Part shown: in pieces, positions 3,593-16,435 of the stretch
How positions within the stretch are numbered: position 1 is the stretch's first letter
How the letters are laid out: every line of letters begins with the position of its first letter
NCBI GenBank assembly: GCA_963422645.2
Contig: CAXXVO010000007.1
Location: 800,001-864,000 of the forward strand
DNA length: 64,000 nt
From: Alphaproteobacteria bacterium
Lineage (GTDB): Bacteria; Pseudomonadota; Alphaproteobacteria; UBA828
Direction of reading: 5' to 3'
Notes under the pieces: generated by a model
Databases searched by the model: none
Told to the model about the DNA's origin: nothing
What the model saw: only the letters and a program-made list of their open reading frames with translations
Position numbers and translations under genes: made by a program

Positions 3593-4438
3593 GTGACGCC
3601 CGCGCTCTCATCCGTCGGCGCGCTGGCGCGGGTGGCCGACTACGACCGCTACCTCTCCGCCGTGTTCGCGCCGGCCCCCCGCCGCGAGGCGCTATTCGCA
3701 CTGATCGCCTTCAACCACGAGATCGCGCGAATTCCCGAGGCGGTGAGCGAGCCGATGCTGGGCCGCATCCGGCTGCAATGGTGGCGCGAGGTCCTCGATG
3801 CGGTCTATGCCGGTGAGCCCGCCCGGCGCCACGAGGTGGCGCTGCCGTTGGCCGACTCGATCCGTGTGTGCGGGCTCGACCGCGCCCCCTTCGACGCGCT
3901 GCTGGAGGCGCGGGAGGACGATCTGGGGTCGGAAGGACCGGCCGATCTTGCGGCGCTGGAGCGCTATGCCGCCGCCACCGGCGGGAGCCTTGCGGAACTC
4001 ATGGTGCGGGCTGCCGGCGCCGACCCTGGCCCGGCGCTGGAGGCGGGGCGGCAGGTCGGCACCGCCTGGGCCTTGGTCGGCACGCTTCGGGCGGCGCCCC
4101 GAACTGCGGCGCAGGGCCGGGTCACGCTCCCGGCCGACCTGCTCTCCAAGGCCGGGATCGCCGCCGAGGATCTGGGGGCGGGCCGGGGGTTCGAGCGTTT
4201 CGCCGCCCTTGCCGAGCCGGTGGCGGACCGCGCCGCCGAATTGCTGGCCACGGCGCGGCAGGCCCGGCGCGCGGTGCCCCGGCAGTGCCTGGGCGTGCTG
4301 CTGATTGCCCGCCTCGCCGATCTCTACCTGGCGCAATTGCGGCGCGCCGCCTGGGACCCGCGCAACCCGCGCGTGGCCTGCGGCCCGCTCCGCAAGCAGG
4401 CGGTGATGCTGAGGGGCGCGGTGTTCGGACGCTACTGA
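3593..4438 (+). CDS. Squalene/phytoene synthase family protein (NDUFAF6-like)
   Basis: DYDRYLSAVFAP, AFNHEIARIPEAVSEPMLGRIRLQWWRE. Confidence 0.85.
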   Translation: MTPALSSVGALARVADYDRYLSAVFAPAPRREALFALIAFNHEIARIPEAVSEPMLGRIRLQWWREVLDAVYAGEPARRHEVALPLADSIRVCGLDRAPFDALLEAREDDLGSEGPADLAALERYAAATGGSLAELMVRAAGADPGPALEAGRQVGTAWALVGTLRAAPRTAAQGRVTLPADLLSKAGIAAEDLGAGRGFERFAALAEPVADRAAELLATARQARRAVPRQCLGVLLIARLADLYLAQLRRAAWDPRNPRVACGPLRKQAVMLRGAVFGRY

Positions 4439-4490
4439 CCCTCACGCGGCGAGGGAAGGGGCCGGTCACCCGGTCCACCCCGGATCAGGG

Positions 4491-4540
4491 TGTAGCCGGA
4501 CGAAAGTCTTTGCGAATCGCGGCCGGAAGTCTTTGCGAAT
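4491..4540 (+). repeat. Left end: two copies of putative transposase-binding motif AAGTCTTTGCGAAT
   Basis: Copies within 4498-4518 and at 4527-4540. Confidence 0.85.
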
Positions 4541-4662
4541 GGCCTGGAAAATCGTCTGGTTTTCGGGGCTGAATCGGGCTGGAAAAACCGGCCTGTGCAT
4601 GGGCCGTGAAGGAGCGCTGCGCGGGGGGTTCAGGGCCCGTGCACGGGCGGTGCGTGAGGGTT

Positions 4663-5544
4663 TCAGGCGCGGTCGGGACCGGGGCGGGCGCCGGGGCGGC
4701 ACGGGCGTTCGAGTTCGGCCTTCCACCATTCGGGGTCTTCGACGGCGCGTTCTGCGGCGTCGTATCCGTCGTGACCGGTCCATCTTCCGGGGTCGGCGTC
4801 GGCGTACCATCGGCCTGCGCCGCGGTGTCGTTCGAGGGCGTCGTCGATGCGGGCGACCTGGTCCGCCGGGCGTCCCCGGCAGAAGCGCTCGAAGAAGGCG
4901 TTGAGGCGGCATCTGGGGCAGCGTCCGCAGGGCTCTGCCGCGGCGGTGCACCGGTAGGTGAGCGCCTCCAGCCCGGGCGGGAGCAGGGCCTGGAGCATGA
5001 AGCGCCCGGCGACGGGTCCGAAGGGGTCGTCCCGCGACGGCGGCCACTGCGCGCCGTCCTCCCAGCCGGGGAAGAAGGGGAGTTCCATGGGGACGGCGGT
5101 GCGCGCGCGGTAGACGGGATACCAGTACATGCGGTGCATGTCGTCGGCGGTGCCCCACGAGGTGATGCCGAGCATCACCCGGTCGGCGCGGTGGCGCTCG
5201 GCCTCGTCGGCGTGGGTTGCGTACCGGTCGAGGCCCCAGGGGCCGAATGTGGGGTCGCAGACGCCCTCCCACCCTCTCCCGTCCCTGATCGGGTATTCGG
5301 CGCCGGCGTCGAGGTCGAGGCGCAGGGCGTCGCGGCTGACGTGGCGCACGGGCCGGACGTTGCGGGAGAGCCAGTCTGCGACGGCCTCGCTTGCGGCCTG
5401 CTCGCGGGCGATGCGCTCCGGCAGCTCGCGGGCCGGTTCGCGGTAGTAGGAGAGGACGACCTCGTCTTCGGTCTCGCGCAGGACGAGGAGGGCGAGGGCG
5501 GTGCTGTCGATGCCGCCGCCTGCGGGGACGAGGGTGCGGCGCAT
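4663..5544 (-). CDS. QueC-like PP-loop ATPase with C-terminal Zn motif (phage-encoded)
   Basis: N-terminal TLVPAGGGIDSTALA (variant of SGGxDS) and CTAAAEPCGRCPRC (C-x6-CGxCxxC). Start at MRRTL. Confidence 0.65.
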   Translation of the reverse strand: MRRTLVPAGGGIDSTALALLVLRETEDEVVLSYYREPARELPERIAREQAASEAVADWLSRNVRPVRHVSRDALRLDLDAGAEYPIRDGRGWEGVCDPTFGPWGLDRYATHADEAERHRADRVMLGITSWGTADDMHRMYWYPVYRARTAVPMELPFFPGWEDGAQWPPSRDDPFGPVAGRFMLQALLPPGLEALTYRCTAAAEPCGRCPRCRLNAFFERFCRGRPADQVARIDDALERHRGAGRWYADADPGRWTGHDGYDAAERAVEDPEWWKAELERPCRPGARPGPDRA

Positions 5545-5549
5545 CGCGA

Positions 5550-6320
5550 TCAGCCCCACTCGATGACGATATAGCCGGCGGAGACCGGGGAGGGCACGGT
5601 GAGCTGGGTGTGTCGGCTGACGCCGCTTGCGCCGGCGGGGGCGGATGCGGTTCCGTCTGCGCCGTCTGCGCCGTCGCGTCGGCCATACGCTCTCTTGCCG
5701 CCCTTGCCGCCGCGCGCCGTGCCGCCGAGGACGGCGGTGTTGCTGCCGTCGCCGCCGTCCCTCAATCGCGCTCCGTCCACGCCGTTGCTTCCCACGGACC
5801 AGAAGTAGGAGCTGCCCGCCGAGACCGCGATCTCGAAGTAGATGAAGCCGCCGTCGCCGCCGTCGCCGCCCGTCCAGCTGATCGGCGCGGCGCCCCTGTT
5901 TTGTTCGAAGCCGCTATCGCCGGCGCCGTCGCCGCCGTCGCCGCCCCGCAACTGCACGCGCACGCGGGTCACGCCCGCGGGCGCGCGCCAGTACCCGGAG
6001 CCGGGCGTGGTGAAGGTCTTGCGCCCGCGCGGCGTGGGCCGGGGCGCCGGCTCGGGCGCGGGACGCGGCGGCGCCGCGCGCTCGCTGAGGTTGGCCAGCC
6101 GCGTGCGCTCGGCGGCGGTGAACACCTCGCCCCGCATCTGGCGGAAGGGGTGCAGGCCGGAGCCGTCGAGGGTGGCGACGCCGCCCGGATCGCCGGCGGC
6201 GGCGATCATGGCGTTTATGGTGTCGGCCATGGCCTTGATGGCGGCGCGGGCGTGGGCGGGCGAATCGCTGCCCTGGTCGAGGTGGGTGGTGTCGATCTTC
6301 CTGGTGGGCCATGCGGTCAT
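5550..6320 (-). CDS. Phage tail-fibre-like protein with glycine-rich domain
   Basis: TTHLDQGSDSPAHARA N-terminus, GVATLDGSG, TFTTPGSGYWRAPAGVTRVRVQLRGGDGG and terminal GYIVIEW. Confidence 0.7.
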   Translation of the reverse strand: MTAWPTRKIDTTHLDQGSDSPAHARAAIKAMADTINAMIAAAGDPGGVATLDGSGLHPFRQMRGEVFTAAERTRLANLSERAAPPRPAPEPAPRPTPRGRKTFTTPGSGYWRAPAGVTRVRVQLRGGDGGDGAGDSGFEQNRGAAPISWTGGDGGDGGFIYFEIAVSAGSSYFWSVGSNGVDGARLRDGGDGSNTAVLGGTARGGKGGKRAYGRRDGADGADGTASAPAGASGVSRHTQLTVPSPVSAGYIVIEWG

Positions 6321-6341
6321 GGGGTTTCCTTTCGCGATCGC

Positions 6342-7699
6342 TCAGCCCGCCGGCGCGGCGATATGGGCGCGGGCGAGGCCGAAGCAGAGGTACTTGACGG
6401 TGGGAATCTGCCCCCGTTCCCAGGTCCAGGTCCACTCGACCTGGACCACGCGACCGGTAATCGCGTCGCCGGCGGCGTAGCCGGTCCAGGCGGCGTCGTC
6501 GAGGTCGTCGCGGCCGTCGGCGGCGCGCACGCGCACCGTCGGTTGGACGGGGGAATCGGACTCCCAGGTGAGCAGCGACACGACGCCGTCCTGGCCGAGG
6601 GCCGCCGGCATGGAGGTGTAGACGGTGGGCTCCGCCGTCCAGCCCGCGCCGGGGAGCGCCCATCCGGTCCAGGCGTCCCAGGTGGTGAGGCCGCCCCAGG
6701 CGTAGTCGGCGGCGCCGGTGGCGGGATCGGCCCAGGAGAAGTCGAGGGCCGCGCCGGCGAGCGTGCCGCGGGTCCATCCCTCGGCGCTGGGGCAGGCCCA
6801 GAACAGGCTCTCGCCCCGGCGCTGGGCGCCGAGGCGCGCGGTGACGCGGCTCTCGGGGCCGTAGCGCCCGCCCGTGTCGAGCGGGCGAAAGGAGAAGATC
6901 CAGTCGCCGGCGGCGGGCTCGACGGCCTCCCACGGGCTTGCGGTGAGCCACCCGCGGTGGATCGCGCGCAGCTCTTCCCACGGCGTGCCCGGATCTGCGG
7001 GCCAGCCGGGCGCGGGTCCGTATCTGATGCGGACGCCGAGCAGGTCGGGGTCGGCCGGCTCGACCCAGCGGAAGCGCCGGGTGCCGTCGCCGAGGCGCTC
7101 GACGTGGGCCTCGGTGACCGCGCCGGGGGGCGTGCGCAGGCCGCGGATCGTATATGCGGTGCGGTGCGGCGGTCCGCCGCCGCGGGGCAGGACGACGATC
7201 TCGATCCAGCCCTCGGGCGGGCTGGTCCAGCGCGCCTCCGTGTCGCCGCCGTCGAGGCTGGCGACGGTGCGCATGGGCCGGCGCTCCCACGACGCGCGGA
7301 CCTCGGCGCCGCGCCAGTCGCCGGCGACGGTGAGGGAGAGCGCGATCTCGACGAGGAAGGCGGCGCCGACGCGGATCAGGGTCTCGGTGACGGTGGCGTG
7401 CAGGACCCGCGGCAGATTGCGCCGTATCTGCGGCAGATCGACCGAGAGGTCGGCGGTGGCGGCAGCGTAGTAGGCGCCGACCTCGTCGACGGCCTCGAGG
7501 CGCACCCGGTCCCCGGATCTGGGGCTGACGCCCACGACCTTCACCCTCGCCGGCCCGGCGCCTGCGGGATAGAGGCGCCAGAGCGTGTCGACGGGCTCGC
7601 CGATTCCGTCCTCCGGCGCGGGTGTCGTCCACACGCGGGCGGTTTCGGCGCCGTTCGCGCGCGCGTCGGAGCCGGGCGGGCCGGCATGGGCGCGCACGG
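6342..7699 (-). pseudogene. 5'-truncated phage tail-tip / host-specificity (J-like, FnIII) protein
   Basis: VKVVGVSPRSGDRVRLEAVDEVGAYY and FRWVEPADPDLLGVRIRY are FnIII-like. The frame is cut at the inner transposon end (7700). Confidence 0.65.
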
Positions 7700-7798
7700 T
7701 GAGCGTGCGCCCAGCATTTGATGGTGCGGTTTTCGGATTATTTGATGTTCGTGATGCGGCGCTTGGTTGATCTGCGAGAGCGGTGAGTGGCCTGGCTT

Positions 7799-8668
7799 TC
7801 ATCGAGACCGCAGGAGCATCTCGTTCCAGTCCTTGGCGTGTCGTGGGCGCAACCTTTTCACCCTTGGATCGTTGAGCACGAGATGCTCGGCGGCAGTGTC
7901 GCCGGCGCTGTCTGCGTCGTAGGCACAGACGATGCGACGTGGCTTCCACTCCTTGATCCAGGGCGGGACCGAGCTGGCGATGCCGGCGGTTGAGGCGACG
8001 ACGGCGCCGTTCTCGCGCGTCCCCTCGACGCGCAGGCTTCGTGCAGAGATGGCGTCGACGGCGCTCTCGGTGAGGATGACGAGGGCGGGCTGGTTTCGGT
8101 CGCAGTGGAGCCAGAAGCCGCCACGCGCCTTGCGCGATCCCGGGGCCATGCCCCTGAAGCGTTTTGTTCCGGGCTGCGGCGCGGTGCCGAGGATCTCGGC
8201 GCCGGTCGTGTGCCCGCTGGCGTTTCGGCAGATGAAGACGGCGTTGATCCTGTCATCGGCGTAGAGGAGGCCTCGGCCGTGGCAGGCTTCGAGCACGTCG
8301 GTGCCGATAGCGCGTTGGCGGATGAGGGCGTCCCGGACCCTGGGCCAGGCGCGGGGACTGGGCCTTGGCAGCCGCAGGCGTCGCGGGGCGGCTGGGATGG
8401 TGGTGATCTCCCTCCGCCCCTCATGGCTTCCGAGGAAGCGGAGGGCTTCCGGGAAGCGGCATCCCGTCGCATGGATGACGAGGTCGATGGCGCCACCCCC
8501 TCCCGTGCCGCGCAGGTGATCGAAGAACTTCTCGCCGTTGATGCTGATGACCGAGCCCCCGCGCTTGAAGCGCGCCCGGTCGGTCGGGTCTCTGCGGTAG
8601 CCGAGGGCGGCGGCGACCCGGTCGAGGGGGATGTTGCGGCAGGTGGCCAGGGGATCGCCGCCGCTCAT
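7799..8668 (-). CDS. DUF3991/Toprim primase-like protein
   Basis: KFFDHLRGTGGGGAIDLV (primase N-terminal-like), ILTESAVDAIS, VCAYDADSAGD and KDWNE Toprim motifs. Confidence 0.8.
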   Translation of the reverse strand: MSGGDPLATCRNIPLDRVAAALGYRRDPTDRARFKRGGSVISINGEKFFDHLRGTGGGGAIDLVIHATGCRFPEALRFLGSHEGRREITTIPAAPRRLRLPRPSPRAWPRVRDALIRQRAIGTDVLEACHGRGLLYADDRINAVFICRNASGHTTGAEILGTAPQPGTKRFRGMAPGSRKARGGFWLHCDRNQPALVILTESAVDAISARSLRVEGTRENGAVVASTAGIASSVPPWIKEWKPRRIVCAYDADSAGDTAAEHLVLNDPRVKRLRPRHAKDWNEMLLRSR

Positions 8669-8709
8669 TGCCGGGTCCCGGCGAAGGTCTGCTTGGAAGG
8701 GAGGCTGAC

Positions 8710-8770
8710 GGCGTTCCCGTTCCTGTACCCTTCAACGCTTAAGAGTTCCGGGAACGGGAACGGGAACGCC
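8710..8770. repeat. 14-bp inverted repeat with (GGGAAC)3 between helicase and primase genes
   Basis: GGCGTTCCCGTTCC (8710-8723) is the reverse complement of GGAACGGGAACGCC (8757-8770). Confidence 0.7.
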
Positions 8771-9769
8771 TCATCCCGCACTTCCGTTGATGGCGGCAGG
8801 GGATTGCGGCTCCCGGTGCGCCTCGGCGGCTGCGAGGCGATAGCCACCCCTGGGCGCCCGTTCGATGCGCCCCTCCCTGGTGAGGCTCTCGATGGCGGCA
8901 ACGACGGTGGCGTTGCGGGCAGCGGCGCGTGAGCGGATCTGGGCTTTCGAGAGCGGCTTTTCGGCCTGCTCGATCGCCTTGAAGACGCGCTGCTCGACGG
9001 TGGCGGGCTCGTGCCTGTCTTCATCTGCCGCGTCCTGGTGCAGACGGAAGGCCGGCCCATGTCCGCCGTCGACGAGTTCCAGCTCGATGTCGTTGAGGCC
9101 CCGGGCGTCGCGCTGCTCGACCGTCATGACGATCTTCTTGTCGCGCCGGCGCAGGTACAGATTTGAGTCACCCCAAGCGTGCAGCTCGCTGCTCCCGCGC
9201 AGGGCCTGCCCCGGCCGGGTGCCGCCGCTCTTGCGGGCGTGGTGGACGAGGAGGACGGCGGTTTCGAAGCGGCGCTGCAGTTCGCGCAGGAAGCCGAGGA
9301 TGGGGGCGATCTCTGCGACGGCGTTCTCGTCGACGCTGTGCAGGCGGACCAGGGGATCGAGGATCAGGAGGCGCGGTTCGATGCGCTCCACGGTCTGCTG
9401 CAGGCGTTGACGGTCGCCGGGCCGGTCGAGACGCAGGGTGGGCACGTCGATGACGGCGATGTCGAGTTCGTCGAAGGGGGTGGCGGCGGCGCGGGCGATC
9501 CCCTGCAGACGCTTGCGCACCCTGTGGCCGGCGTCCTCGGCGGCGAAGAGCAGCACGGTGCCGCTTGCGCTGGGGCGGTAGTGGCGCAGGCATGGGACGC
9601 CGGTGGCCACGGCGACGGCGAGATCGAGCGCGAGCAGGGATTTGCCGCACTTGGGCTCGCCGCCGACGATGCCCACGGCCTGCTCGGCCCACAGCGTGTC
9701 CACCATCCACTGTTGCGCCCGGGGGCGATCCTCGAGCTGCATCGGCGCCCGTGTCGGGAAGCCCTTCAC
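8771..9769 (-). CDS. AAA_25 / RepA-like (RecA-superfamily) helicase with C-terminal winged HTH
   Basis: GGEPKCGKS Walker A, FAAED, LLILDPLVRLH, VHHARK and ALRGSSELHAWGD. GTG start at 9769 overlaps the upstream stop. Confidence 0.8.
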   Translation of the reverse strand: MKGFPTRAPMQLEDRPRAQQWMVDTLWAEQAVGIVGGEPKCGKSLLALDLAVAVATGVPCLRHYRPSASGTVLLFAAEDAGHRVRKRLQGIARAAATPFDELDIAVIDVPTLRLDRPGDRQRLQQTVERIEPRLLILDPLVRLHSVDENAVAEIAPILGFLRELQRRFETAVLLVHHARKSGGTRPGQALRGSSELHAWGDSNLYLRRRDKKIVMTVEQRDARGLNDIELELVDGGHGPAFRLHQDAADEDRHEPATVEQRVFKAIEQAEKPLSKAQIRSRAAARNATVVAAIESLTREGRIERAPRGGYRLAAAEAHREPQSPAAINGSAG

Positions 9770-10599
9770 CGCCGTGCCCTCTTCGGCTTGGCGGGCTCGC
9801 CCAGGATCTCCATGAAGAGCTTCTCGTCGAGAACCTCGCGGTTCTTCTCGGCGCCGGCGGCGAGCAGCATGTCGCCCATGACGGTAAGCGCCCTGGGGTT
9901 GCCGCCGGCGTGGGTGACCAGGGTGTCCTTGAGCTCTGCGCTCATGAGGCCCGGATTGCCGGCCTGCTCGACCAGATGGTCGAGCAGGGCCGCGAGGTCG
10001 CCGGCGTCTGCCTGGGTCATGACCAGGCGCTGGCGCAGGCGCGAGGCGATGGGCTGCAAGTCGGGCTGGCGGAGCCTGTCGATCAGGCGGCTGTCGCCGG
10101 CGAAGACGACCGAGAGGATGGCGCGCGAGTCGAAGTCGGTGGACGCCAGCAGGCGGATCTCGGAGATCACCGAGGGCAGCAGCTCCTGGGCCTCGTCGAT
10201 GAGCACCACGGGCCGCATGCGGGTGTCGTCGACATGGGTGAGCCATCGCTCGCGCAGGTTTTTGAAGCTGGCCCAGCGGTTGTTGTACATCAGGTCGACG
10301 CCGAACATCCCGCCGATCTCGCGGTAGAAGTCGGACAGCCTGGAAGAGGGGTGGGTGATGGCACAGACCCTGAGCCCGTCCGAGCGGCCGAGGCGGTCGG
10401 CGAGCACGCGCAACGCCACGCTCTTTCCGGTGCCGGGCTCGCCGGCGATCAACGCGAAGCCGCCCTGGCGCACAAGATGATGCTCGATTCTGAGGCAGAA
10501 GCTGTCGACGGCGGGGCTCACCATGAGGCTGTCGACCGGAAGGTCGGTGGCGAAGGGGTTCCATTTGAGCCCGTAGAAGGTGAGCAGCTCGCGGTTCAT
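9766..10599 (-). CDS. ExeA/TnsC/MuB-like AAA+ ATPase (transposition helper)
   Basis: YGLKWNPF, GEPGTGKS, VVLIDEAQEL and GGNPRAL; coupled to the transposase stop (ATGA). Confidence 0.85.
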   Translation of the reverse strand: MNRELLTFYGLKWNPFATDLPVDSLMVSPAVDSFCLRIEHHLVRQGGFALIAGEPGTGKSVALRVLADRLGRSDGLRVCAITHPSSRLSDFYREIGGMFGVDLMYNNRWASFKNLRERWLTHVDDTRMRPVVLIDEAQELLPSVISEIRLLASTDFDSRAILSVVFAGDSRLIDRLRQPDLQPIASRLRQRLVMTQADAGDLAALLDHLVEQAGNPGLMSAELKDTLVTHAGGNPRALTVMGDMLLAAGAEKNREVLDEKLFMEILGEPAKPKRARR

Positions 10600-12074
10600 G
10601 ACGGATCTCCCTGATCGTCGTCCTCGCCCGGACCGGGCGTCTTGTTATGGGGTACCCAGGCCGGCGGCAGGCCTGTTGCGGCCTGGGCGTCGAGCACGCC
10701 CTTGAGCAGCGGCGGAAGTTCGCCGACGCCCGCGCTGGCGCCGCCATGGTCGCTGCCGGGTCTCGCAGGACGGCGGACGCCATCGGCGTTGCCGCGCTTG
10801 TCGAGGGGGTACAGCGTGCACAGCCGCTCGCCGCTTCGGCCTTCCACCAGATCGACGCCGCTGAGGTCCCAGCGCGCATAGCGGACCCAGAGCGTCCTCA
10901 GGTGGCGCCACGGCTGTGGCACCTGGTAGCGGATGCCCTCGACCGAGACGGTGCCGTCCGAGCGCCTGAGCGTGCGCTTCCTGGCGATGCGGAAGGCCGC
11001 CTTGAGCTCGTCCGAGGCGGGGCAGGGCCTCGATGCCTTGACGCTCCCGGCGAGGCGTTCATGCGGCGTCATGCCGAGCTCGCGGTGCACCCGCCGATGG
11101 TAGTCCTGCTCCAGCCAGGCTATGGTGGCGTCGTTGAGCATCTTCAGGGTGAGCGCGTCGACGCCTTCGAGCTGAGCCATCAGGCGGCCCTCGACCGTGC
11201 CCCAGAACGACTCGATTTTTCCATTTTGATGGGGGCTGTAAGCGAGTGTCGTGGCCCCCACGATGCCGATGAGGCGGTGCAAGCCCTCCTCGACCTCGCC
11301 CGCCGTCATCGGCCCGCCGTTGTCGGTCAGCAGGGACCTGGGCAAGTCCCTCTTCATGAAGGCCTGACAGAGCCCGTGGACGAAGACCTCGGCGGTCTCC
11401 TCCAGGTACCACTGCAGGTGGCAGCCAAGCCTGGAGTGGTCGTCGAGGAAGCCGAGCAGGATGGGCGTCTGCCATTCGCCCGACGCCGTCAGCACGCGGC
11501 GCTTGCCGTGGTGGAAGTCCCCGTGCCACAGCGCGTGACTGCGAGACACCTCGTAGCTAAGGACCTCGCGGGCTTCGACCGCCGGCTTGTCCTCACCCTC
11601 GTGCCACTTCCTGGGGCGCTCGCGCACCAGGCCGCGATTGCGCATCGCCCGCGTCAGCGTCGCGTAGGACGGCATCGGGCCGAGCTCGGGATGGGTCGCA
11701 ACATGAGCCTTGAGGGTCTCGTAGTGGAGCTGCGCCGCCCACGAGGGATGGACCCGGTACTGCTCGCGCAGCGCCGCGATCAGCCCCGCCGACATGGACC
11801 GCTCGCGGCCGACGTCGGTCCGAGGCTTCCGGCGCAGCGCCTTGACCGGGTCCTGCTCCTCTGCCCGCGCCCGGTAGTACCAGCGCTCGATCGTCGAGGC
11901 CGCAAAGCGCACCGGCCCCTTGCCCGACGGGTGCTCCCAGTCGCGCTGCGACAGACGCTCGAACTCGGCCCCCAGCTGGCCTGCAGGCGGCGGTGAAGCC
12001 AGAAGCGGCCCCACCACCGCAAAGCGCAGCCGGGCCCACTTCTCGCGCCTGGCGCCTGCGTCGTCCTTGTCCAT
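10596..12074 (-). CDS. DDE transposase (rve core with Mu-transposase-like C-terminal domain)
   Basis: WHGDFHH...FLDDHSR, LTDNGG, NGKIESFW and RSDGTVSVEGIRY. Start taken at MDKDD. Confidence 0.9.
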   Translation of the reverse strand: MDKDDAGARREKWARLRFAVVGPLLASPPPAGQLGAEFERLSQRDWEHPSGKGPVRFAASTIERWYYRARAEEQDPVKALRRKPRTDVGRERSMSAGLIAALREQYRVHPSWAAQLHYETLKAHVATHPELGPMPSYATLTRAMRNRGLVRERPRKWHEGEDKPAVEAREVLSYEVSRSHALWHGDFHHGKRRVLTASGEWQTPILLGFLDDHSRLGCHLQWYLEETAEVFVHGLCQAFMKRDLPRSLLTDNGGPMTAGEVEEGLHRLIGIVGATTLAYSPHQNGKIESFWGTVEGRLMAQLEGVDALTLKMLNDATIAWLEQDYHRRVHRELGMTPHERLAGSVKASRPCPASDELKAAFRIARKRTLRRSDGTVSVEGIRYQVPQPWRHLRTLWVRYARWDLSGVDLVEGRSGERLCTLYPLDKRGNADGVRRPARPGSDHGGASAGVGELPPLLKGVLDAQAATGLPPAWVPHNKTPGPGEDDDQGDPS

Positions 12075-12123
12075 TCCGGCATCCCTCCCTCGCCGCATCG
12101 GAGAGATGCCCATGTAGAACGCC

Positions 12124-12741
12124 CTATCCGGGCGTGACAGGAACACTTTCTGCGGGCGGCGCCGAGCCATCGCCGAGCCCGCAATAGCCCGTCCACGGCT
12201 TGAACCAGATCAGGCTCAGGAACAGACGCTCACCGAAGCGTCCGCCCCGCATCTGCCGCAGCACGAAGAGCAGCGGCACCTCCTCGGGTGGCATCACCAG
12301 TTCGCCACGCTTCGCTCCCCAGGGCTCCGTCGCCGGGAACGCCTCCAGCCACCACTTCCGCCAGCGGCGCAGTGTGGCGACCGAGACCCCCCACTTCCGC
12401 TTGATCGTCTGCAACCGCACCCCGCCTCTCAGAACCAGTGCACTCAACAGAACGAACAGGGCGCCCAGATAAAAGCGGCGCCCGAAGAATCGTACCGATG
12501 GTGGGGTCGCTCGCAGGCGGCAATCCGCGCAGCAGAAGCTGAACCGCCGCGTGCCCTCTTCCCTCAACTCGGCTGCCAGACCGTACGGCTTGCGCGGATA
12601 CGTCGCGCTGTGCAGCTTGCCGGGGCAGTGTCGGCAGCCCGCCTCGCGGCAGCGCGCCGCCTCGGCCTCATCGACCTCGCGCAGCCAGGCCCAGACCAGG
12701 GCGTTGCAAAGCATGGAGTGGCGGAAAATGTTGTGCGACAT
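12124..12741 (-). CDS. Cys-rich Zn-finger/HTH protein, first gene of the inner transposon
   Basis: GCRHCPGKLHSATYPRKP, RFSFCCADCRLRATPPSVRFFGRR and HTH-like GVSVATLRRWRKWW. Confidence 0.7.
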   Translation of the reverse strand: MSHNIFRHSMLCNALVWAWLREVDEAEAARCREAGCRHCPGKLHSATYPRKPYGLAAELREEGTRRFSFCCADCRLRATPPSVRFFGRRFYLGALFVLLSALVLRGGVRLQTIKRKWGVSVATLRRWRKWWLEAFPATEPWGAKRGELVMPPEEVPLLFVLRQMRGGRFGERLFLSLIWFKPWTGYCGLGDGSAPPAESVPVTPG

Positions 12742-12789
12742 TGGGGCCGTCTCTGGCGATTGTGACCGTCACCACGAGACAAAGCCCCC

Positions 12790-12814
12790 CGGCGAACTTC
12801 TTGCAAGTTCGCCG
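12790..12814. promoter_or_regulatory. Perfect 10-bp stem hairpin upstream of the transposon operon
   Basis: CGGCGAACTT-CTTGC-AAGTTCGCCG. Confidence 0.45.
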
Positions 12815-12891
12815 AGGGGCACCCGCCCCAAAACCTCAACAAATCCGAGCGGATCAGGCCCCGATCCCCGCTGAAAGACCGCGCGCGCTCA

Positions 12892-13506
12892 ACGGCGCCC
12901 ACGCCCGGAACCGTCCGCGTCCACAACGAGAGCGAGACCTGGCAGCCCCTCGCCCCCGACCTCGGCGGCCGCGACCTCGACGCAACATCCCGCCTCTTCC
13001 GCAACCACCTGCTCGGCGGCGCCGGCATGCCCGAGCACTGGTTCGGCGGCGGCGGCGACGTCAACCGCGCAACCGCCGCAGAGATGGGCGATCCCGCCTT
13101 CAAGACCCTCAAGATGCGCCAGAGGCTGTGGACCGAGATCCTGCGCCGGGCCGCAGACTACGCCATCGCCCGCAGGCTCGACCCCTCCGGCGCATCATGG
13201 CCCGATCCCGCAGACCCCGCCCTCGCCGTCTCCGTCGAATGGCCCGAGATGGTGGTCGCCGACGCCTCCCGACACGCCGCCGCGCTCGCCCAGACCGCAG
13301 GCGCCGCGGCGCTGGCCATCGAGCGCGGCCTGCTCTCGGACGCCACCGCGCTCCGCGTCATCGCCGCCGTCGCCGGGCGCCTCGGCGTCGAGATCGACGC
13401 CGACGCCGAACTCGAGGCGGCGCGCGAAGACGCCGCCGGACGGGCCGAAGAAGACGCCTTCCGCGAGCCCCCGCAGGACGAGGACGCCGACGACGGCGAG
13501 GCGTAG
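12892..13506 (+). pseudogene. 5'-truncated phage portal protein
   Basis: Frame extends upstream of the listed Met: PTPGTVRVHNESETWQPLAPDL...NHLLGGAGMPEHWFGGGGDVNRATAAEM...RQ. It begins at the transposon end and precedes a gpF-like gene. Confidence 0.7.
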
Positions 13507-13509
13507 CAC

Positions 13510-14445
13510 GTGGCTACCGACCGTCAGCGCCAGCACAGGCTCAAGGGCGAGCGATCCCGCCGCGCCCGCGCCCTGCCCCGCATCCAGAAGGACACCGCCG
13601 CCGAGGTCGGCCGCATCCTCGGGCGCGCCGAGCGCGACATCCGGGCCACCCTCGCCGGCGCGCCCTCCGATTACCAGGCATGGGCGCTGCCATCCCTCCA
13701 GGCCTCCGTCCGGGACGCCCTCGACAGCCTCGGCGCAGACGCCGGGCAGGCCATGGCCGAGGGCGCAACCCGCGCCTGGGACGCCGGCATCGATACCATG
13801 GACGCCCCCGTCGACGCCGCCATGCGCCTCGATGCCCCCGACTTCCGCATCGCCGCCGTCCTGCCCGAGGTCGACACCCGCCAGCTCCTCGCCATGCGAT
13901 CCTTCCTCACCGACAAGATGAAGGGCGTCACCGCCGCCCTCGCAGACCGCGTCAACACCCAGCTCGGCCTCGCCATGACCGGCTCGGTCCCCGTCGGCGA
14001 GACCACCGGACGCGTCGCCGCCATCCTCAAGAGCGGCCGCTCCCGTGCGCTCACCGTGATCCGGACCGAGCTCGGCCGCGCATACTCCATGGCCGGACAG
14101 CAGCGCATGGAGCAGGCCGCCGGGATCCTGCCGGGGCTGAGGAAGCAGTGGCGACGCTCCGGAAAGCTCAGAAGCCGCATCGCCCACGACGCCGTCGACG
14201 GACAGACCAGGGAAGCCGCCAGGCCCTTCGACGTCGGCGGCGCTTCGCTCATGTACCCCCGCGATCCCGCCGGACCCGCCGCCGAGACGATCAACTGCGG
14301 ATGCCAGTCGCTGCCATGGATGGAAAGCTGGGAGGTCGAGAACCCCGGGCGAAAGCCGTTCTCCGACGAGGAGATCGCACGCGACCCGCGGCGCGCCGAT
14401 CTCGAAGGGAAGGAGGCCGGCGCGGGGACAACGCCGGCATCGTAG
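13510..14445 (+). CDS. Phage head morphogenesis protein (Mu gpF / SPP1 gp7 family)
   Basis: RALTVIRTELGRAY, KQWRRSGK..SRIAHDAVDGQ...PF and LMYPRDP...ETINCGC. Confidence 0.85.
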   Translation: MATDRQRQHRLKGERSRRARALPRIQKDTAAEVGRILGRAERDIRATLAGAPSDYQAWALPSLQASVRDALDSLGADAGQAMAEGATRAWDAGIDTMDAPVDAAMRLDAPDFRIAAVLPEVDTRQLLAMRSFLTDKMKGVTAALADRVNTQLGLAMTGSVPVGETTGRVAAILKSGRSRALTVIRTELGRAYSMAGQQRMEQAAGILPGLRKQWRRSGKLRSRIAHDAVDGQTREAARPFDVGGASLMYPRDPAGPAAETINCGCQSLPWMESWEVENPGRKPFSDEEIARDPRRADLEGKEAGAGTTPAS

Positions 14446-14591
14446 ACCGGGCGAGGCGAAGCCCCGCGCCGCACCCCGATTTACCGGCGAATCCGCACCC
14501 CCGGAACCGCCCCGATTTACAGGCCTTTCAGCACCCCTGAAACGCCCCGAAAATCACCGTTTCCAGCCAATTCACGGCCCTTTCCGGGCCG

Positions 14592-14715
14592 GATTCGCAA
14601 AGACTTTCGTCCGGCCCGCCAGACCCCGGAAACGCCGCCAACCCCTTGACCGTCCGCCTTCTTCCGCCTTCTTCCCGGCATCTTCCGGATTCGCAATGAC
14701 TTTCGTCCCCCTACA
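14592..14715 (-). repeat. Right end: two inverted copies of the end motif
   Basis: 14592-14615 is the exact 24-bp reverse complement of 4495-4518; the terminal copy is 14688-14715. Confidence 0.9.
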
Positions 14716-14840
14716 CAGGGTGCGGTGCGCGGCGCGCTCCGCCCGCATGACGCGATTGCCGCGCCCGCGACCCTTCAGGCGCAGGAGACACGCGTGCGGG
14801 ACTCCTGATTTCGCGCGCACGACGCTGCGCGAGCGCGCGA

Positions 14841-15079: not shown

Positions 15080-16435
15080 TCAGGCTGCCGCGGCGCGGCC
15101 TTCCCCCAGCCAGTGGCCGAGATCCGCGCGGGCGCGCTCTACCATCGCGACCTTGCGTGCGCGCTTGGGCACGCGCCCCGCGAGCGGCGGGAACAGGCCG
15201 AAGTTGACGTTCATCGGCTGGAAGGTCCCGCCTGCGCCCAGATGACCGCCGGTGATGTGGCTGAGCAGCGCGCCGAACGCCGTGGTTGGCGGCGGCGGCG
15301 GGGCGGTCGCACCCGTAATCTCCGCCGCAGCGAAACGCCCCGCGAGCAGCCCGATCGCCGCGCTCTCGACATAGCCCTCGACGCCGGTGATCTGACCCGC
15401 GAAGCGCAGATGCGGGGCGCGGCGCAGCCGCAGCTCCGCGTCCAGCAGCACCGGGCTATTGATGAAGGTGTTGCGGTGAATGCCGCCAAGCCTGGCGAAG
15501 CTCGCCTGCTCCAGCCCCGGGATCAGACGGAAGATCCGCTTCTGCGCCCCGTGCGTGAGCTTGGTCTGGAAGCCCACTATGTTGAAGAGGGTGCCGAGCG
15601 CGTTGTCCTGACGCAGTTGCACCACCGCATGCGGGCGGGCGCCGGTGGCGGGGTCGGTCAGACCCACGGGCTTCATGGGGCCGAAGCGGAGCGTTTCGCG
15701 GCCGCGCGCCGCCATCACCTCGATGGGCAGGCAGCCCTCGAAGTAGGGCGTGTCGCGCTCCCAGTCCCTGAAGGGGATCGTGTCGCCGGCGAGCAGGGCG
15801 TCGATGAAGGCCTCGTAGCGCTCGCCGTCGAGCGGGCAGTTGATGTAGGCCGCGCGGTCGCCGCCGGGACCCGCCTTGTCGTAGCGGGACTGGAACCAGG
15901 CCCGGTCGAAGTCGATGCTGTCGCGGTGGACGATGGGTGCGAGCGCGTCGAAGAAGGCGAGGTGGTCCTCGCCGGTCTCGTCCAGGATCGCCTGGCTCAG
16001 CGCCGGGGCGGTGAGGGGGCCGGTGGCGACGATGGTCAGGCCCTCCGCCGCATCGGGCAGGCCGGGGGCTTCCGCACGGCGCAACCGGATTGCGGGCTCG
16101 TCTTCGATTGCTTGCTGCACGGCCTCGGCGAAGCCCGTGCGGTCCACGGCGAGCGCCTGCCCGGCCGGCACCTTGTGGCGGTCGGCGGCGGCCATGACCA
16201 GCGAGCCCGCGCGCCGCATCTCCTCGTGCAGGAGGCCGACGGCATTGCGCTCGGCATCGTCGGAGCGGAAGGAGTTGGAGCAGACCAGCTCGGCAAGCCG
16301 GTCCGTGATATGCGCCTCGGTGGCGCGCACCGGCCGCATCTCCCACAGCTCGACCGCTCCGCCTTGGCGCGCGATTTGCCACGCCGCCTCGCAGCCGGCG
16401 AGGCCGCCGCCGATGATGCGGATCCGCTCTTCCAC
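15080..16435 (-). CDS. trmFO: tRNA (uracil-54) methyltransferase TrmFO
   Basis: [34 protein letters not shown] and [15 protein letters not shown]. Confidence 0.95.

Follow-up and report, generated by a model that had tools for sequence, protein, structure and literature searches.

An element with Mu-like ends and phage genes in an alphaproteobacterial genome: very probably an internally deleted transposable prophage from a multi-copy family

Does a DNA segment that combines the ends of a transposon with the genes of a phage represent a transposon carrying phage cargo, or a phage that has been reduced to a transposon? This question is raised by a stretch of 64,000 nucleotides from an alphaproteobacterium of the UBA828 lineage (contig CAXXVO010000007.1, positions 800,001 to 864,000; designated here as the window), in which such a segment occupies positions 4491-14715, between a squalene/phytoene-synthase-family gene (3593-4438) and a GIDA-family TrmFO-like gene (451 aa, 15080-16435, minus strand). 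We conclude with high confidence that the segment derives from a Mu-like transposable prophage by internal deletion, which makes it in effect a natural "mini-Mu". The first-pass annotation, made from the sequence of the window alone, had read it as the non-autonomous remnant of a transposable phage with MuA/TnsB-type ends, and this reading is supported by further copies in the same genome, by a full-length parent type in another genome of the genus (G002) and by the synteny of the insertion site. What sets its lineage apart from ordinary Mu-like phages is the rearranged gene order, the distant transposase and the presence of at least 43 copies, including very small ones.

The window element has TGT...ACA tips and is flanked on both sides by an exact duplication of CAGGG. 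The left copy of this target-site duplication (TSD) lies at 4486-4490 and is directly followed by TGTAGCCGGACGAAAGTCTTTGCGAATC, the beginning of the left tip (4491-4518, plus strand), which includes a predicted terminal site, L1. The right tip (14688-14715, minus strand), which includes the terminal site R1, ends with GATTCGCAATGACTTTCGTCCCCCTACA and is directly followed by the right copy of CAGGG at 14716-14720. The termini form an imperfect inverted repeat with 28-bp arms (25 of 28 positions identical), which an inverted-repeat search scores as 29 nt at 90% with one flanking base included. Each end contains repeated sites of the form AAGTC..TTGCGAAT. The 21-mer GGACGAAAGTCTTTGCGAATC matches the window four times with at most three mismatches, at 4498-4518 and 4521-4541 on the plus strand and at 14592-14612 and 14688-14708 on the minus strand, against a chance expectation of 0 in 100 dinucleotide-preserving shuffles; each end thus possesses a terminal and a second site. 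The second left site, L2 (4521-4541, plus strand), adjoins L1, a layout also found in the full-length prophage of G002 and in another relative, G006, and the two right sites are 96 bp apart. The sub-terminal right region (14560-14612, minus strand) comprises an exact copy of the L1 21-mer (14592-14612) and a degenerate third site, R3 (14560-14590); correspondingly, the left-end 56 nt (4495-4550) are mirrored by the inner right sequence at 14560-14615 with 79% identity. The boundaries, the TGT...ACA termini, the 25/28 repeat, the second motif in each end and the CAGGG duplication had all been described in the first-pass annotation and were reproduced here. TG...CA ends with an imperfect inverted repeat, several sites of about 22 bp per end and a 5-bp TSD are likewise features of phage Mu and mini-Mu. 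In the attL and attR ends of Mu, the sites are adjacent at one end and spaced at the other, and the present ends, with several repeats of transposase-binding type arranged differently on the two sides, can be likened to this layout at the level of sequence. Base composition is no marker of the element, since G+C is 0.66-0.77 inside as well as outside.

Mu-type virion genes lie between these ends. On the right, next to a nested transposon of 5,192 bp (7700-12891, minus strand), is the C-terminal third of a portal gene (12892-13506, plus strand; phrog_10963, E 1.7e-14, profile positions 349-463 of 503), which was called as an open reading frame (ORF) from an internal start at 13027-13506; another copy of the family (L013) has the full portal gene of 476 aa. 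It is followed by an intact Mu F-like head-morphogenesis gene (13510-14445, plus strand, 311 aa; phrog_2468, E 2.3e-28), whose match to Phage_Mu_F (E 3.8e-5) is below the curated cut-off. On the left, a J-like gene for the central tail fibre is represented by its C-terminal part (6342-7699, minus strand; phrog_31, E 7e-5, a weak match), which the nested transposon truncates at 7699/7700; more complete versions, of 1061-1444 aa, are present elsewhere in the family. Between the J-like fragment and the left tip are a glycine-rich fibre-like or fibre-assembly-like ORF of 256 aa (5550-6320, minus strand; phrog_863, E 8.5e-5) and a QueC-like ORF of 298 aa with a PP-loop-like motif (4663-5559, minus strand; phrog_1550, E 7e-5), both weak matches without a Pfam counterpart; the latter is an accessory gene beside the left end, and intact ORFs of this kind are also present in other copies. 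Genes to the left of the nested transposon are transcribed toward the left tip, and those to its right toward the right tip. In total, about 5.0 kb of phage-derived sequence is kept, and the earlier statement that the interior is phage-like apart from the nested transposon holds in that all remaining ORFs match phage profiles, three of them weakly.

A full-length relative joins ends of this architecture to a full complement of myovirus genes. G002 contains a complete prophage of 39,208 bp (G002:C1:174072-213279) with TGT...ACA tips and the 5-bp TSD GCGAC; its left boundary reads GCGAC and then TGTAGGCGCGCAAAAGTCGGGCGGAATC..., its right tip, reverse-complemented, reads TGTCGGGAAGCAGAAGTCGGACGGAATC..., and GCGAC stands directly beyond the right boundary. 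Toward the left tip are genes for fibre, baseplate, tape measure, tube, sheath, adaptor, capsid, scaffold and protease; the center contains a Dam-type methylase and an S24 repressor; and toward the right tip are, in order, a 252-aa protein, A, B, a GcrA-like protein, a Gam-like protein, GemA, HNH, lysis genes, the small and large terminase, a stretch without annotation at the place expected for the portal, and F. The transposase A (588 aa) matches rve (56.7 bits) and Mu-transpos_C (46.4 bits), both above the curated cut-offs, as well as phrog_310 (E 6e-71), and B (325 aa) matches AAA_22 and phrog_296 (E 7e-47). This intact pair of a DDE transposase and an AAA+ protein is what the G002 prophage possesses and the window copy does not. 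The two elements share the end layout, namely two adjacent AAGTC...GAATC sites on the left and, on the right, a tip site, a spacer of about 75-100 bp, a second site and a conserved block. The full-length parent that the first-pass annotation had called for thus has its counterpart in G002, where the same end architecture, a 5-bp TSD, A, B and virion genes are united.

Other relatives add partial evidence. G006 has a left tip followed by tail and capsid genes and the same protease-Dam junction as G002, after which the contig ends. A tip-pattern search of 40 relatives gave single tips in two, G006 and G011, the latter apparently a lone R-type end. The pattern missed the G002 prophage because its tips have diverged, and pattern counts therefore underestimate the family. 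Long-open-frame homologues of an A fragment from contig C16 of the genome under study were found in 5 of 43 other family genomes, all of the same genus. More distantly, seven loci related to the A of G002 (34-39% identity) were found in delta- and gammaproteobacterial metagenome-assembled genomes. As a separate observation on the G002 prophage (L049, L047; G002:C1:193001-213279), the GcrA-like protein (PF07750, E 2.2e-10) is encoded just after B, and the Dam-type methylase lies beside the central divergent region; the hosts are evidently bacteria using GcrA-type cell-cycle control.

By transposase, the nearest deposited phages are Shewanella MuM16-1, Pseudoalteromonas HS6, Ralstonia RS138, Rhodobacter RC1 and Rhodovulum RS1, to which the A of G002 is 35-39% identical over 53-62% of its length. 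All of them resemble the G002 prophage in having an rve-type Mu-like transposase, an adjoining "DNA transposition protein" and Mu-like head genes. In RC1, as annotated, the genes are collinear on one strand in the order repressor, A, B, lysis, terminase, portal, F, G, protease, capsid, tail, J and fibre, whereas in G002 the A-to-F block is inverted and points to the right tip, and the genes from protease to fibre point to the left tip. In the deposited phages, the part of the transposase that was matched is located 1.8-4.6 kb from a genome end; the A gene of G002 is 23.3 kb from the left and 14.1 kb from the right tip, and F abuts the tip. The inverted order is found in G002, in part in G006, and in the copies with R1- and R2-type right ends described below, which makes it a property of the lineage rather than a local rearrangement; all 45 right tips of the genome under study are of these two types, whose mapped arms bear phage head or packaging sequence beside the tip. 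The description of the lineage as unusual is consequently borne out by an A protein at most 39% identical to that of any deposited phage and by a gene order rearranged relative to canonical Mu-like phages. Among solved structures searched by sequence, A best matches TnsB of a CRISPR-associated transposon (7svw, E 4.2e-7, residues 148-489), and MuA chains are matched only through the N-terminal DNA-binding domain of A (2ezk, E 1.6e-3; 4fcy, E 0.017).

The window element is one of many. In the 5.9-Mb assembly to which the window belongs (G000; 23 contigs, 99.6% complete), the site motif occurs 116 times, compared with 0 for a reversed control, and a tip-pattern search gave 86 termini, 41 of L type and 45 of R type. 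The former comprise the subfamilies La (12), Lb (11), Lc (10) and Ld (8, including the window's left end), and the latter R1 (24, the window's type) and the related R2 (21), which is about 72-78% identical to R1 over about 270 bp. In twenty cases, an L and an R tip face each other on one contig and are bounded by a perfect 5-bp TSD, with 19 different TSD sequences represented, a result in favor of the first-pass annotation, which had proposed a search for copies with different TSDs. The sizes of these elements are 893, 1127, 1567, 2672, 2875, 4539, 4933, 5046, 5129, 5361, 6344, 6896, 7828, 8250, 8549, 10225, 11421, 12143, 13881 and 22672 bp. The family has at least 43 chromosomal copies in this one genome, very small members included. 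NYSRN, given as the Mu-type target consensus in a published report (PMC12486242), is fitted by 11 of the 20 TSDs, compared with 19.5% expected from the genome background (binomial p = 4.6e-4).

What all copies share is limited to the terminal 120-200 bp, and their interiors vary through deletions and through insertions of the nested transposon and of IS21-like, IS1595-type and IS4-like elements (IS, insertion sequence). Within subfamilies, the terminal 110-190 bp are 96-100% identical, except in R2 (lowest pair 72%), and complete identity is seen in every La pair (55) and every Lc pair (36) that aligned over at least 90% of the terminal length. The median identity of tip-anchored arms of at least 1 kb is 99.9% for La (21 pairs), 97.7% for Lb, 97.2% for Lc and 97.9% for R1, and the arms of Ld, the window's subfamily, are the most diverged (92-97%, 3 pairs). 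Given that the arm identities are unequal among subfamilies, the insertions were not simultaneous. Other copies encode GemA, an SLT lysis enzyme, Mu Gp27, the large terminase, Portal_Mu, Mu F, a Mu G-type Phage_tail_S protein, the head protease, the capsid, full-length J and a 2OG-Fe(II) oxygenase, with terminase, portal and F oriented toward the R tip and protease, capsid, tail and J toward the L tip.

An IS21-like element of about 2,551 bp (e.g., L018:7358-9908) is present in more than 70 copies in the genome with 99.9-100% identity, and it repeatedly interrupts the family. One junction, 198 bp from the R1 tip, recurs in three TSD-validated copies, and another, at La arm position 5832/5833, recurs in two; in two further copies, IS21 junctions lie at distances of 114 and 127 bp from the L tip. 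Together with the A-gene remnants that end at IS21 (see below), these junctions may reflect target preference for the phage, inheritance or gene conversion.

Can any member still move by itself? The window copy outside the nested transposon encodes neither A nor B, according to Pfam and PHROG scans of its ORFs, and neither gene was found intact in the G000 assembly. Searching the genome by tblastn with the A and B of G002 gave only four pieces: A residues 30-237 in two pieces on contig C10, A residues 12-146 on C16 and B residues 236-312 on C8. Both A-gene remnants end at IS21 insertions. Searches with rve and phrog_310 gave 113 and 78 matches, the strongest phrog_310 matches being to the gene of the nested transposon; the remaining phrog_310 matches, part of which were inspected, look IS-type. 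Searches of the genome with PF09299 and PF02914 gave no match, and as control genomes were also silent, these blanks are of little weight. Two ORFs of another copy (L018:6388-7326 and L018:9886-10458) were considered as halves of a split transposase and rejected, as they matched no family and the A remnant lies elsewhere. Because A and B are not intact in the assembly, the window copy is non-autonomous and at present stranded without a helper, and because it lacks both genes itself, we class it as a defective derivative and not as a phage. It has what defines a mini-element, with both ends kept, a flanking TSD and no cognate transposase of its own, and it could be moved only if a related phage supplied A and B.

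By analogy with MuA and TnsB, the insertion at this locus can be pictured as follows. The DDE protein A, aided by the AAA+ protein B, is predicted to bind the approximately 22-bp sites and to pair the ends; it would nick at the terminal ...CA-3' and join the ends to a B-bound target 5 bp apart, and gap repair or replication would leave CAGGG duplicated between the synthase-family and TrmFO-like genes. Of a parent of about 39 kb, about 34 kb is now missing, namely the remainder of J, the genes for tail and head, the repressor, A and B, the lysis genes, the terminase and the portal's N-terminal part. At the position corresponding to the nested transposon, the portal gene of intact copies reads ...GGGCC, ACGG and CGCC in succession, and ACGG is found on both sides of the transposon, so that it was probably inserted into the portal gene. 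Direct repeats of 4-5 bp flank three of the eight full-length copies of the nested transposon, and ACGG may accordingly be a true duplication, although chance is also possible. We infer that this insertion probably came first and that a deletion from J to the left edge of the transposon followed, possibly via a shared CACGG. Separately, the internal deletion of the 2,672-bp copy (G000:C18:138849-141520) has its junction at a GCA(A)GGGCC microhomology, no more than about 10 bp away from the point of the portal gene at which the nested transposon sits in the window copy; coincidence, a hotspot or shared ancestry are all possible.

Decay in place is not the only way to arrive at such a copy. The element may have arrived already deleted, mobilized in trans by helper A and B in the manner of Ac/Ds, an alternative that we consider possible but rather unlikely. 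It would account for TSD-flanked members as small as 893, 1127, 1567 and 2672 bp, for tip subfamilies of 8-24 copies with near-identical terminal 110-190 bp, and for the IS21 junctions common to copies with different TSDs (three at R1, two at La). However, the J/portal junction of the window copy occurs in no other copy, and each mapped TSD-validated copy has its own deletion pattern. The shared IS21 junctions, moreover, could equally have arisen through IS21 target preference or gene conversion, and the two La copies that share a junction have different R-end types. Apart from the question of where this particular copy was deleted, we put forward, tentatively and at somewhat less than even chances, a history for the family as a whole: a rearranged Mu-like myophage lineage may have acted as a transposon family, reaching at least 43 copies in several bursts, with Ds/MITE-like derivatives (MITE, miniature inverted-repeat transposable element) down to 0.9 kb copied partly in trans, a host that survived repeated rounds and a helper that has since been lost.

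The nested transposon suggests another alternative, in which the 10.2-kb unit is an autonomous transposon whose internal DDE and AAA_22 proteins recognize the outer ends, the phage genes being cargo. The transposon encodes a DUF3991/Toprim protein (7799-8668), a RepA/DnaB-like AAA_25 protein (8771 to about 9730), an AAA_22 ATPase (9766-10599; phrog_296, E 6e-19), an rve DDE transposase (10596-12170; phrog_310, E 1e-33) and a Zn/HTH protein of 205 aa (12124-12741). Its DDE and ATPase proteins are of MuA/MuB-TniA/TniB type and are the only intact proteins of this type found in the genome, which speaks for such a role. They belong, however, to a separate unit of 5,192 bp, which is bounded by TGAGCG...CGCTCA ends of its own and has sub-terminal repeats unlike those of the outer ends. 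The genome contains 8 full-length copies of this unit (99.8-100% identity) as well as 27 of its left and 24 of its right ends, and some of these lie away from any Mu-like tip (e.g., C8:788924-794115); of the 20 outer elements validated by a TSD, at least 13 lack it altogether. In addition, identity between its DDE protein and the A of G002 is only 24% (E 0.002), and this A itself sits between outer-type ends. We therefore regard the autonomous-transposon explanation as very improbable. As a point of its own, the nested transposon joins a Mu/Tni-type transposition module to primase/helicase-like genes, a combination that looks unusual.

The genomic context of the element was compared with that in relatives. 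The left flank is present in 19 of 20 other genomes of the genus, and the 11 best loci were compared. Both flanks lie within one 3.5-kb locus in eight of these, the synthase-family and TrmFO-like genes aligning 6 bp apart in five (L055, L056, L057, L059 and L061), and none of the 11 carries a 10-kb insertion; the neighborhood of the flanking genes in relatives thus supports insertion. In G005, the closest relative (91-94% identity), about 180 bp around the site are absent. A side observation concerns G009 (L054, G009:C1:11597-15189), in which the left intergenic sequence is kept up to ...CCGGACCATGG and is then replaced by a different sequence, TGCAGTGTACG...; another element may be inserted there at almost the same spot. 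Chance or recombinational juxtaposition of the ends of different copies, for which one may cite a genome rich in repeats and rearrangements and tips that are unpaired or have their TSD partner on another contig (C5:244783 L, C6:164266 R), is the least credible explanation of the inverted repeats and CAGGG, as the 5-bp duplication is exact, the flanking genes are neighbors in most relatives' loci and the 21-mer is expected 0 times in shuffles.

Several points weigh against the identification as a deleted Mu-like prophage. Of the empty site proposed as a check by the first-pass annotation, only the adjacency of the flanking genes without an insertion was found, and the exact site with a single CAGGG was not recovered among the relatives' loci examined. 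The window's own TSD, CAGGG, is off the NYSRN consensus on both strands. A Pfam scan of the five outer ORFs left four without any match, and the phage matches of three of the five (QueC-like, fibre-like and J-like) are weak, with E values of about 1e-4. The ends of G002 and of the window copy are alike in architecture and in their AAGTC...GAATC cores but not close in sequence, so that cognate recognition across both is not assured. Finally, an intact helper could reside in unassembled repeats of the 23-contig assembly.

Comparison with known systems places the family among Mu-like phages. The parent type shares with phage Mu a DDE transposase A, an AAA+ protein B and Mu-type GemA, Gp27, portal, F and G, and the window copy shares with mini-Mu the state of a deleted element that is non-autonomous because only its ends remain. 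Unlike in Mu, the Mu-specific DDE_2 family is not among the Pfam matches of A (E up to 0.01), which are instead to rve and Mu-transpos_C; and unlike laboratory mini-Mu, the present minis arose naturally, with dozens of copies in a single chromosome. Tn7-like elements also have a 5-bp TSD and, as described in one paper (PMC9308760), a short terminal sequence with arrays of approximately 22-bp transposase sites. The present family differs from them in its virion genes and in its 20 insertions at 20 different sites rather than at a fixed attachment site. Tn7-like elements are defined by a TnsA/TnsB/TnsC core with a TnsD/TniQ or CRISPR target selector, whereas no TnsA, TnsD or TniQ family was named when the ORFs of the window, those of other copies and the early region of G002 were scanned with Pfam and PHROG. 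The alphaproteobacterial Mu-like prophages phiA-phiC of Citromicrobium have 5-bp TSDs that follow NYSRN, as do 11 of 20 here, and are described as inducible and single (PMC12486242), whereas the present family is multi-copy. With Ac/Ds and MITEs, the family shares heterogeneous, internally deleted copies that have only the ends in common, members of less than 1 kb and dependence on a transposase from elsewhere; it differs from them in that its parent is a tailed phage. Among the papers listed by a literature search, there was no report of multi-copy defective Mu-like elements or of phage-derived MITEs in a bacterial genome, which is not proof of their absence from the literature.

Transposable phages usually occur as one or a few prophages per genome, and their replicative transposition accompanies lytic growth. 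The 86 termini and 20 validated insertions, in all states of decay, form a natural record of how a phage passes into inert or trans-dependent transposon fossils, and the same chromosome records the erosion of a transposing phage by insertion sequences. The G002 prophage indicates that Mu-type transposition tolerates an inverted early-to-F block, and it provides an A and a B for direct tests of end recognition. For annotation, the ends account for dozens of scattered "phage fragments" that prophage finders would probably call unrelated remnants.

Further observations concern individual copies and their accessory genes. A 450-bp unit at G000:C12:72306-72755 consists of two R2-type ends in inverted orientation without a matching 5-bp duplication. 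The flank of the unpaired L tip at G000:C5:244783, CACAT, equals that of the unpaired R tip at G000:C6:164266, which reflects either one element split by rearrangement or an assembly join at repeats. Beside the left end, two alternative accessory cassettes were observed: the QueC-like PP-loop protein in Lb, Lc and Ld arms, and a 2OG-Fe(II) oxygenase (Pfam E 3.7e-10) with a 146-aa protein in La arms (L021:7732-8880). Mu has mom at the corresponding position, which points to genes for DNA modification or to morons of another kind. A candidate ORF in the 22.7-kb copy, within its head region (L018:18601-19572; G000:C8:103171-104142), matches the Acb2/Tad1 hairpin domain (PF24729, E 7.3e-11) and may be an anti-defence "sponge" gene.

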